Positions 52,462 through 54,192 of a stretch of 64,000 nt of DNA are shown in pieces. Positions within the stretch are counted from its first letter, which is position 1, and each line of letters opens with the position of its first letter. The DNA comes from Nannocystis sp. (GTDB lineage: Bacteria > Myxococcota_A > Polyangia > Nannocystales > Nannocystaceae), in NCBI RefSeq assembly GCF_016717175.1, contig NZ_JADKFZ010000003.1; one strand, given 5' to 3'. The translations under genes were made by a program, and so were the position numbers. The notes below the pieces were generated by a model. That model ran no database searches. It saw only the letters and a list, made by a program, of their open reading frames with translations, and was not told where the DNA came from.

Positions 52462-54192
52462 CGGCGGGGTGGGGGGGGGCGGGGGGGGCGGGGGGGGGGG
52501 GGGGGGGGGGGGCGGGGGCCGGGGCCCCGGGCCGGGCCGGGGCCGGGGCCGGGGCCGGGCCGGCCCCCCCGCGGGCACGGCGGCGCCGCGGGGGGCGGGG
52601 GGGGGCCCCGCGGCCGGGGGGGGGGCGGGGGGGGACAGGGGGAGAGAGGCACGCCCCCCCAGAGGGCCCGCGCCCGGGGGGGGGGGCCCGGGCCCCCCGG
52701 GGGGCCCCGCCGCCGGCCCCCGCGAGCCGGGCCCGGGGGGGGCGGGGGGGGGAGGGGGGGCGGGGGCCAGCCCCGGGGCCGGGGCGACAGAGCCGGGGGG
52801 GGCCCCCCCCCCGCCGCCGGCGGCGGGGGGGCCCGGCGCCCCGCCGACCGCCGCCGCCGACCCCACCCCCCCCGGGGCGGCGGGAGGGGCGGCCGGCCGG
52901 GGCGGGGCGGGGGGGCCCGGCGGGGGCGGGGGCCCCGGGGGGCCCGGGCCGCCGGCCCGGCGGCGCCCGCCCCCCGGCACCCCGGGACCCCCCCCCGGCG
53001 GGGGGCGCCCGGGGGGACACCCGGGGGCGGCCGCGCGGCGCGGCGGCGGCGGGGGCGGGCGGGCGCGGGGGGGGCGGCCGCGCCGGGCCCCCGACCCAGG
53101 CCCCCGGCCCGGACCCACGCCGCCGCGGCCACCGCCCGCCACGCCCCGCGCCGGGGCCCCGGGGAGGGGCCCGGCCCGGGCGCCCCCGCGCCCGCGCGGG
53201 CGGGCGGGGGGCGGGGGGGGGGGGGGCGGGGACGGCCGCCGGGGGCCCGCGGCGGGCCCGGGGGCGGCGGGCGGGCCGCGGCGGGCCGGCCCGGGGCCCC
53301 CGCCGGGCCGGGGGGGGCCCGGGGGGCCGCCGGCCGGGCCGCCCGGCCCCCCCGCCCCCGGGGCCGGGGGGGCGGGAAGGCCGGGGCGGCCCGGCCCCGG
53401 AAAAGCACGCCCCCCCCGCGCCCCGGGCGGGGCGAGAGAAGGAGGGGGGGGGCCACGCCGGGCCGGGCGGGCCGGCGCGGGGGGGGCCCGCCCGCCCCAA
53501 CAACCCGGCCCCCCGGGCCCGCGGCCCGGCCCGGGGGGCGCCCAGCCGGGGCGGCACCCCGGCCCGCAGGCGGGCGCCCCGCGCCCGCCCGGGGGCCGGG
53601 GGAGGGAGGGGGGGGGGGGGGGGGGGCGGGGGCGGCCCGCCGGGCGGGGGCGGGGGGGGGCGCGGCGGGGGCGGGGGCCCCCCGGCGGGGGCGGCGCCGG
53701 GGCGGCGCCGCGGGCGGGGCGGCCGCCGGGGGGGCCCCCGCGCGCGGGCCGGGGGGGGGGGGGGCCGGGGGGGGGCGCCGGCGGGCGGGGCGGGGGCCCG
53801 GGGCGGCGCGGGGCCGGCGGGGGGGGGGGGGGGCCCGGCCGGGCCCGCGGGCGCGGGCGCCCGGAGGGCGCCGGGGGGGGGGGGGGGGGGGGGGGGGGGC
53901 CGGGCGCCGCGGGCCCCCGGCCCCCCCCCCGGGCACCCGGGCCGGCAGCCCGGGGGGGCCCCGCGGGGGGGGGCGGGGGGGGCCGGGGGGGGGCGGCGCC
54001 CGCCCGGGCGCCCCGGGGCCGGCGGGCGCCGGGGCGGGGGAGGAAGGCACCGAGAGGGCGGGGCGGGGGGGGCCGGCGGCCGGGGGCCGGGGCGGCGGCG
54101 GGCGGGGGGGCCCGGCGGCCGGGCCGGGGGGCCGGGGGCCGGGGCCGGGGCGGGCGGGGGGGGGGGGGGGGGGGCGGGCCGGCGAGGGGGAG
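52462..54192. repeat. 1.73-kb tract of almost pure G/C (long G and C homopolymers, GGCCGGG-type units, only a few A and almost no T)
   Basis: The composition is visible directly. There are no stop codons in any frame, so spurious Pro/Gly/Arg/Ala ORFs (968, 891, 682, 630 aa) form on both strands. The edges are sharp at about 52462 and 54192. Confidence 0.9.

Follow-up and report, generated by a model that had tools for sequence, protein, structure and literature searches.

A T-free, 96% G+C tract between amidase and RlaP genes of a Nannocystis contig is very probably an artefact of assembly or base-calling

The errors usually seen in ONT reads are short homopolymer indels. At G-quadruplex (G4) motifs insertion, deletion and mismatch errors of ONT sequencing all go up, by approximately 1.3-1.6-fold, and the G4 is the only non-B motif type with clearly higher rates of both insertion and deletion (Weissensteiner et al. 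2023, PMC10519405). Slow translocation has also been linked to insertion errors, with long insertions in some reads (PMC8486125). Here we describe a tract of approximately 1.7 kb, composed nearly exclusively of G and C, in a 64,000-nt stretch of a Nannocystis contig (NZ_JADKFZ010000003.1), referred to below as the window. The tract resembles the unsupported single-read insertions and unpolished segments of nanopore/Canu metagenome assemblies in that it is extra sequence found in one assembly only, noise-like and rich in homopolymers. It also has small indels at its edge, an otherwise well-polished contig around it and, probably, a pipeline with permissive settings behind it. Unlike the usual ONT errors it is a kilobase-long stretch of T-free G/C, for which we found no published description. 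It shares with the G4 error hot spots its position inside a canonical short-loop G4 motif and a G-rich composition on the strand of the motif, but the published effect is a modest rise in small errors (PMC10519405), whereas the insertion here is of kilobase length. Our literature search on nanopore stalling at G4 motifs gave general support only, and turned up no account of G/C junk of kilobase length at such motifs in a nanopore assembly. The tract has, like (GGGGCC)n expansions, short (GGGGCC)n-like stretches (at 52513-52563); unlike such expansions it has no persisting unit, is aperiodic overall and is absent from relatives.

In a direct count positions 52462-54192 contain 1,026 G, 640 C, 64 A and 1 T, that is, 96.2% G+C, which agrees with the first-pass annotation of this DNA, where more than 95% G/C had been noted. 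The same annotation had described the tract as having no T at all. This is correct for 52471-54193, the longest T-free run of the window (1,723 nt; G 1,021, C 638, A 64), and incorrect for the sole T of the counted interval, at 52470. The runner-up among the T-free runs of the window is only 161 nt long. The G runs of the tract measure 27, 23, 19, 19, 15, 14 and 14 nt, so that those of more than 20 G reported earlier are indeed there, and elsewhere in the window G runs do not exceed 8. The C runs had been put slightly too high, at more than 10: they stop at exactly 10, a length reached twice, with a maximum of 6 elsewhere in the window. Outside the tract the window has 66-77% G+C per kb, in line with the background of around 70% given before. 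G runs of at least 27 nt appear in 1.1% of first-order Markov simulations that use the tract's own composition. In 92 related loci (1.32 Mb, many with 70-76% G+C) the richest 200-nt window has 88.5% G+C, runs without T or without A extend to 160 nt at most, and homopolymers of G or C do not exceed 10. No tract-like sequence was found elsewhere in the window, where its uniqueness had already been remarked on, nor in the 1.32 Mb of related loci. The tract is therefore far beyond chance and is present in the file as described.

The base asymmetry of the tract, with 64 A and 0 T over 1,723 nt, has a direct effect on the reading frames. As there is no T on the plus strand and no A on the minus strand, a stop codon is impossible in any frame, and all six frames of the tract are open solely because T (or, on the other strand, A) is missing. 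ORFs of 968, 891, 682, 630 and 602 aa traverse the tract and join adjacent genes, as the first reading of the sequence had recognised. Exact look-up of the fused 891-aa and 682-aa ORFs in a protein collection gave no match. The G4Hunter score rises to 4.0 inside the tract, where G-run motifs capable of forming a G4 are trivially present.

The genes on both sides were identified by Pfam matches (PF01510 for the amidase, PF10127 for both nucleotidyltransferases; Table 1), which bears out the earlier placement of the tract between an amidase and two nucleotidyltransferases. All three are on the minus strand, with the amidase upstream of the tract and the two RlaP genes, which encode Pol-beta-type nucleotidyltransferases, downstream. 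The Amidase_2 domain is complete, but the native stop of the gene has been lost in the tract and its ORF continues to 891 aa. The ATG of the first RlaP gene lies approximately 20 nt past the tract.

Table 1. Features at the amidase-RlaP junction of the window. The boundaries of the tract are uncertain by approximately 12 nt because the native sequence is G-rich on both sides.
Feature	Coordinates	Strand	Description
Probable junk tract	52457..54169		Approximately 1.70 kb of apparent G/C(/A) noise, a net insertion when compared with every related assembly
Ragged 5' edge	52451..52494	+	Garbled copy of native GGTATCACGGGGCGCGGGGCGGGGG
Clean 3' edge	54170..54193	+	Native GGGGGCGGGCCGGCGAGGGGGAGG resumes exactly
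N-acetylmuramoyl-L-alanine amidase (Amidase_2)	54170..54846	-	PF01510, E 8.8e-22, profile 4-131 of 131; start codon provisional
RlaP-family nucleotidyltransferase 1	51509..52438	-	309 aa, intact; PF10127, E 8.3e-22
RlaP-family nucleotidyltransferase 2	50668..51462	-	264 aa, intact; PF10127, E 7.4e-28

A search with the RlaP protein matched Nannocystis (Myxococcota) loci, and further contigs were gathered via the closest protein relatives. The junction between the amidase and RlaP is covered by 18 of these loci: L001 (a GTDB Nannocystis MAG), L081-L083, L092, L084-L089, L090 (GCA_964267895.1), L091 (the Logan assembly of SRR11674041) and L093-L097 (from Logan, JGI, ENA and NCBI sources). The first-pass annotation had proposed a look at the same locus in related genomes, and the result of this comparison is uniform, the tract being absent in all 18. 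In the relatives the amidase has 251-283 aa and ends 17-90 nt before RlaP. The amidase stop and the RlaP ATG lie 17 nt apart in L001 and also in L090 and L091, both of which read straight through as ...GCCGGCCCGCCCCCGCCCCGCGCCCCGTGATACCGTCC... From the conserved AEL motif of the amidase to the RlaP ATG there are 61, 73, 91, 132 or 150 nt in the relatives, as against approximately 1,770 nt in the window; L083 was scored by the same native intergenic sequence and not by the AEL-ATG distance. The closest loci, L090 and L091, have 16-44 substitutions per 3.5-3.8 kb of flank (approximately 0.4-1%) and a few 20-50-nt indel blocks relative to the window, and are not the identical strain. BLAST alignments with these two loci stop at window position 54158 and restart at 52494, with an overlap of 36 nt in the subject. 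This indicates a net excess of approximately 1.70 kb and a loss of only a few native bases; the 36-nt overlap of the two ends of the tract is the native G-rich motif aligned twice. The earlier suggestion of collapsed or mis-called GC-rich sequence does not fit these data, as approximately 1.7 kb has been added at a place where the native genes nearly adjoin.

The two edges of the tract are very different. At the ragged edge the native TCA, complementary to the stop codon of the amidase, is missing, and positions 52456-52483 contain ten small errors, with five bases deleted, two inserted and three substituted. Beyond it there are just 3 more differences, all substitutions, over the next 250-500 nt. 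Read on the minus strand, the clean edge codes for ...DLPLAGPP of the amidase, and from the first base of this edge the window is identical to L090, L091 and L081, with the first difference from L091 at 54337. In minus-strand orientation ...GACCTCCCCCTCGCCGGCCCGCCCCC is followed directly by GCCCCGCGCCCCGTGATACCGTCCCCGGCGTCATGGAG at the native junction; the window is perfect up to the boundary between these two, and then the tract begins. The exit from the tract on this strand reads ...ACCCCGCCGCGCCC-GATACCGTCC, and here the amidase has lost its TGA stop. The native junction on the plus strand is GGTATCACGGGGCGCGGGGCGGGGGCGGGCCGGCGAGGGGGAGG, and in the window this strand, followed 5' to 3', shows degradation on entering the motif, then approximately 1.7 kb of what appears to be noise, and then a clean resumption in the last G runs. 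The asymmetry of the edges, with ten errors on one side and perfect agreement on the other, fits a single directional read.

The junction itself (window 52440-52470 and 54158-54200; L001 and L081-L097) varies naturally in length from one Nannocystis strain to another. Its shorter forms resemble the products of deletion between short direct repeats rich in C (GCCCCCGCC), and the C-terminus of the amidase and the position of its stop shift along with the length of the junction. These natural variants are of ordinary composition and at most approximately 90 nt longer than the shortest. Other differences between the loci were seen nearby. The two RlaP paralogues are 46 nt apart in the window (51463-51508) and approximately 43 nt apart in L081, and they overlap by 4 nt in L091 (1234-1237), L093 (1289-1292) and L084; the window has approximately 50 extra nt between them relative to L090 and L091. 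In L090 one ORF of 637 aa (7143-9056) was called across both a Metallophos phosphoesterase and the amidase, while these are separate genes in L081, L084 and L094, and in the Metallophos-amidase interval (approximately 54700-55100) the window has approximately 65 extra nt relative to L090. The difference may be genuine, as a fusion or an indel, or one of the assemblies may be in error. In L085, a metagenome scaffold of 94% identity, an unannotated gene of 249 aa (1797-2546) replaces a HAMP-domain gene, and the amidase (7605-7913) is called as just 102 aa; strain variation or an assembly problem may account for these differences. Elsewhere in the window a minus-strand ORF of 665 aa (44386-46383), judged by eye from its translation, appears to have a Ser/Thr-kinase-like VIHRDIKPGN motif followed by long (GAGP)n/(GLGS)n repeats.

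No 3-base periodicity was found in the tract: G, C and A are equally frequent in each phase, and the autocorrelation is flat, while a strong period 3 is seen in the flanks by the same analysis. Low-complexity coding sequence for Pro, Gly, Ala and Arg was therefore ruled out, the composition being flat by codon position. TRF gave 77 overlapping rows for the tract, with periods of 1-153 and mostly 63-85% match, and neither TRF nor autocorrelation identified a consistent head-to-tail repeat unit. This excludes a tandem repeat or microsatellite expansion, for which a stable unit is lacking. The insertion of a mobile element was also rejected, as there is no coding signal and there are no terminal repeats or target-site duplication beyond low-complexity G. 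Megablast of window positions 40000-64000 against phage and plasmid collections gave no match, and thus no mobile-element context. The tract shows neither the codon periodicity nor the base symmetry nor the homopolymer lengths of the organism's genomic DNA.

A search for hidden homology was aimed at the possibility that real sequence had been mis-called, for example T as C together with A as G, or T as G together with A as C. Recoded in purine/pyrimidine and keto/amino alphabets, the tract was compared with both strands of the 8 kb of flank on each side, with reversed and block-shuffled sequences as controls. No reduced-alphabet homology to the flanks was found, the scores being 120 against a control maximum of 132 and 103 against a control maximum of 109. 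Exact searches of JGI metagenome contigs gave no match for a 47-nt, A-containing piece of the tract and likewise none for the 40-nt native junction, so this collection favours neither reading. The second-longest T-free run of the window (10139-10299, 161 nt) consists of GGCACGACGGCG(GCG/CCG) units repeated in tandem and in frame, which encode Gly-Thr-Thr-Ala-like repeats within a long plus-strand ORF. It was considered as a second junk tract and rejected, being an ordinary low-complexity coding repeat.

The probable origin of the contig can be traced through its proteins. In exact look-ups the first RlaP protein is identical to NCBI MBK9753870.1 and the second to MBK9753869.1; these accessions are consecutive, are labelled 'MAG: Nannocystis sp.' and belong to a contig of 621,778 bp. 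We take the MBK accession range to fit the Danish activated-sludge project, and a contig of that project, JADKAF01, was found among the related loci. We infer that the source MAG comes from this nanopore project (Singleton et al. 2021, PMC8012365), and the listed rows of its MAG table include g__Nannocystis MAGs, one of them at approximately 12x nanopore coverage. [quoted passage not shown] As a result of corMinCoverage=0 and --include-unpolished, read sequence without other support and unmapped contig segments are kept. SRR11674035 is an Illumina run of the same project (PMC11809585), and SRR11674041, the source of L091, is six accessions away from it. The stated Illumina origin of the one and the neighbouring accession of the other suggest that L091 is a short-read assembly from the same study. 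L091 would then probably be a short-read assembly from the project that produced the window, and it has the native junction.

From the comparison with relatives and the character of the sequence itself, we regard the tract as very probably an artefact of assembly or base-calling and not the DNA of the organism. The artefact reading had already been offered in the first-pass annotation, and it is supported here by the absence of the tract from every related locus, the lack of periodicity or of a unit, the loss of the stop codon and the errors at one edge. The tract is almost certainly unsupported noise in a metagenome assembly that is probably nanopore-based. The alternative offered with it, a real insertion forming a G4 or i-motif, is disfavoured by its absence from the 18 related loci. 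What remains of the G4 idea is that the native insertion point is itself a strong G4 motif, while the tract as a biological element does not stand.

The strong native motif may have triggered the artefact. At the insertion point lies GGGGCGCGGGGCGGGGGCGGG, the one sequence of the window that qualifies as a stringent G4 motif (G4+ runs, loops of at most 3 nt). Its site has a G4Hunter score of 2.36 and is one of eight sites in the window that score at least 2.0; the seven other G4-prone sites are without junk. The strand on which the native motif is G-rich is also the G-rich strand of the tract. We propose that a single plus-strand nanopore read gave a long abnormal signal on reaching GGGGCGCGGGGCGGGGGCGGG, the likely cause being a stall or very slow translocation at the motif. 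The flip-flop base-caller would have rendered this signal as approximately 1.7 kb of G-rich homopolymer noise and returned to normal sequence afterwards. Since reads that lacked coverage support were retained, Canu may then have built this part of the contig on the noisy read. Polishing would have been powerless, as neither the other long reads nor the Illumina reads could align inside the noise, and the unpolished sequence would have been retained by the design of the pipeline. We are less sure of a G4 stall as the trigger than of the artefact itself, and hold this trigger to be somewhat more probable than all others taken together.

The possibility that the tract is real has to be weighed against this. 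A genuine 1.7-kb, 96% G+C, T-free and G4-dense tract might have arisen in one Nannocystis strain by runaway expansion in vivo or by non-templated synthesis at an unstable junction. Such an origin could draw on the strong G4 motif at the junction, on the G-richness of the tract on the motif's own strand and on the natural length polymorphism of 61-150 nt, which points to some real instability, and the nearest comparators, at approximately 0.4-1% substitutions, are not the identical strain. The natural variants are, however, ordinary in composition and exceed the shortest form by at most approximately 90 nt, none of the 18 related loci has the tract, and no unit has been expanded periodically. 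The 64 A against 0 T and the G runs of up to 27 have no counterpart in 1.32 Mb of related DNA, the stop codon of the amidase is destroyed, and the cluster of indels at one edge is typical of raw long-read error. The 47-nt piece, too, was without an exact match in the JGI metagenome contigs. We therefore consider a real strain-specific tract highly improbable.

We give just as little credence to the idea that 1.7 kb of ordinary sequence was really inserted here and came out garbled in the tract, be it an IS element, a gene cassette or DNA with local modifications. The length is within the range of small mobile elements and the site is intergenic and variable among strains, but mis-called coding sequence should partly keep its 3-nt periodicity, and none is left. 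The reduced-alphabet similarity to the flanking 8 kb is not above that of shuffled controls, no terminal repeats or target duplication were seen beyond low-complexity G runs, the relatives have no element at this site, and ordinary DNA would have been mended by the Illumina polishing. A short-read origin, in which a de Bruijn assembler or gap filler joined up dark-cycle poly-G reads from two-colour Illumina sequencing, seems to us slighter still. The base order of the tract, G >> C > A > T=0, would resemble a fading signal in two-channel chemistry. The HiSeq X, however, is a four-channel instrument, and the probable source project used its reads only to polish a Canu long-read assembly. Random junk reads would also lack the consistent overlaps needed to make up 1.7 kb within a 622-kb contig, and L091, apparently from an Illumina run of the same project, has the native junction.

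If the tract were real DNA it would be an unprecedented bacterial sequence, which the evidence makes very unlikely. Its biological importance is thus small and its value lies in what it says about data quality. In a public MAG contig such noise removes a stop codon and fuses or extends ORFs; it can seed protein databases with Pro/Gly/Arg/Ala pseudo-proteins of 600-970 aa, and it can mislead genome scans based on composition or on G4 motifs. The tract may be a marker of a class of G4-triggered artefacts in older nanopore assemblies. Should junk of this kind turn out to favour strong G4 motifs, older assemblies of the R9.4.1/flip-flop/Canu type would be cleaned up by a simple screen for long runs without one of the bases, or for 200-nt windows of more than 93% G+C.
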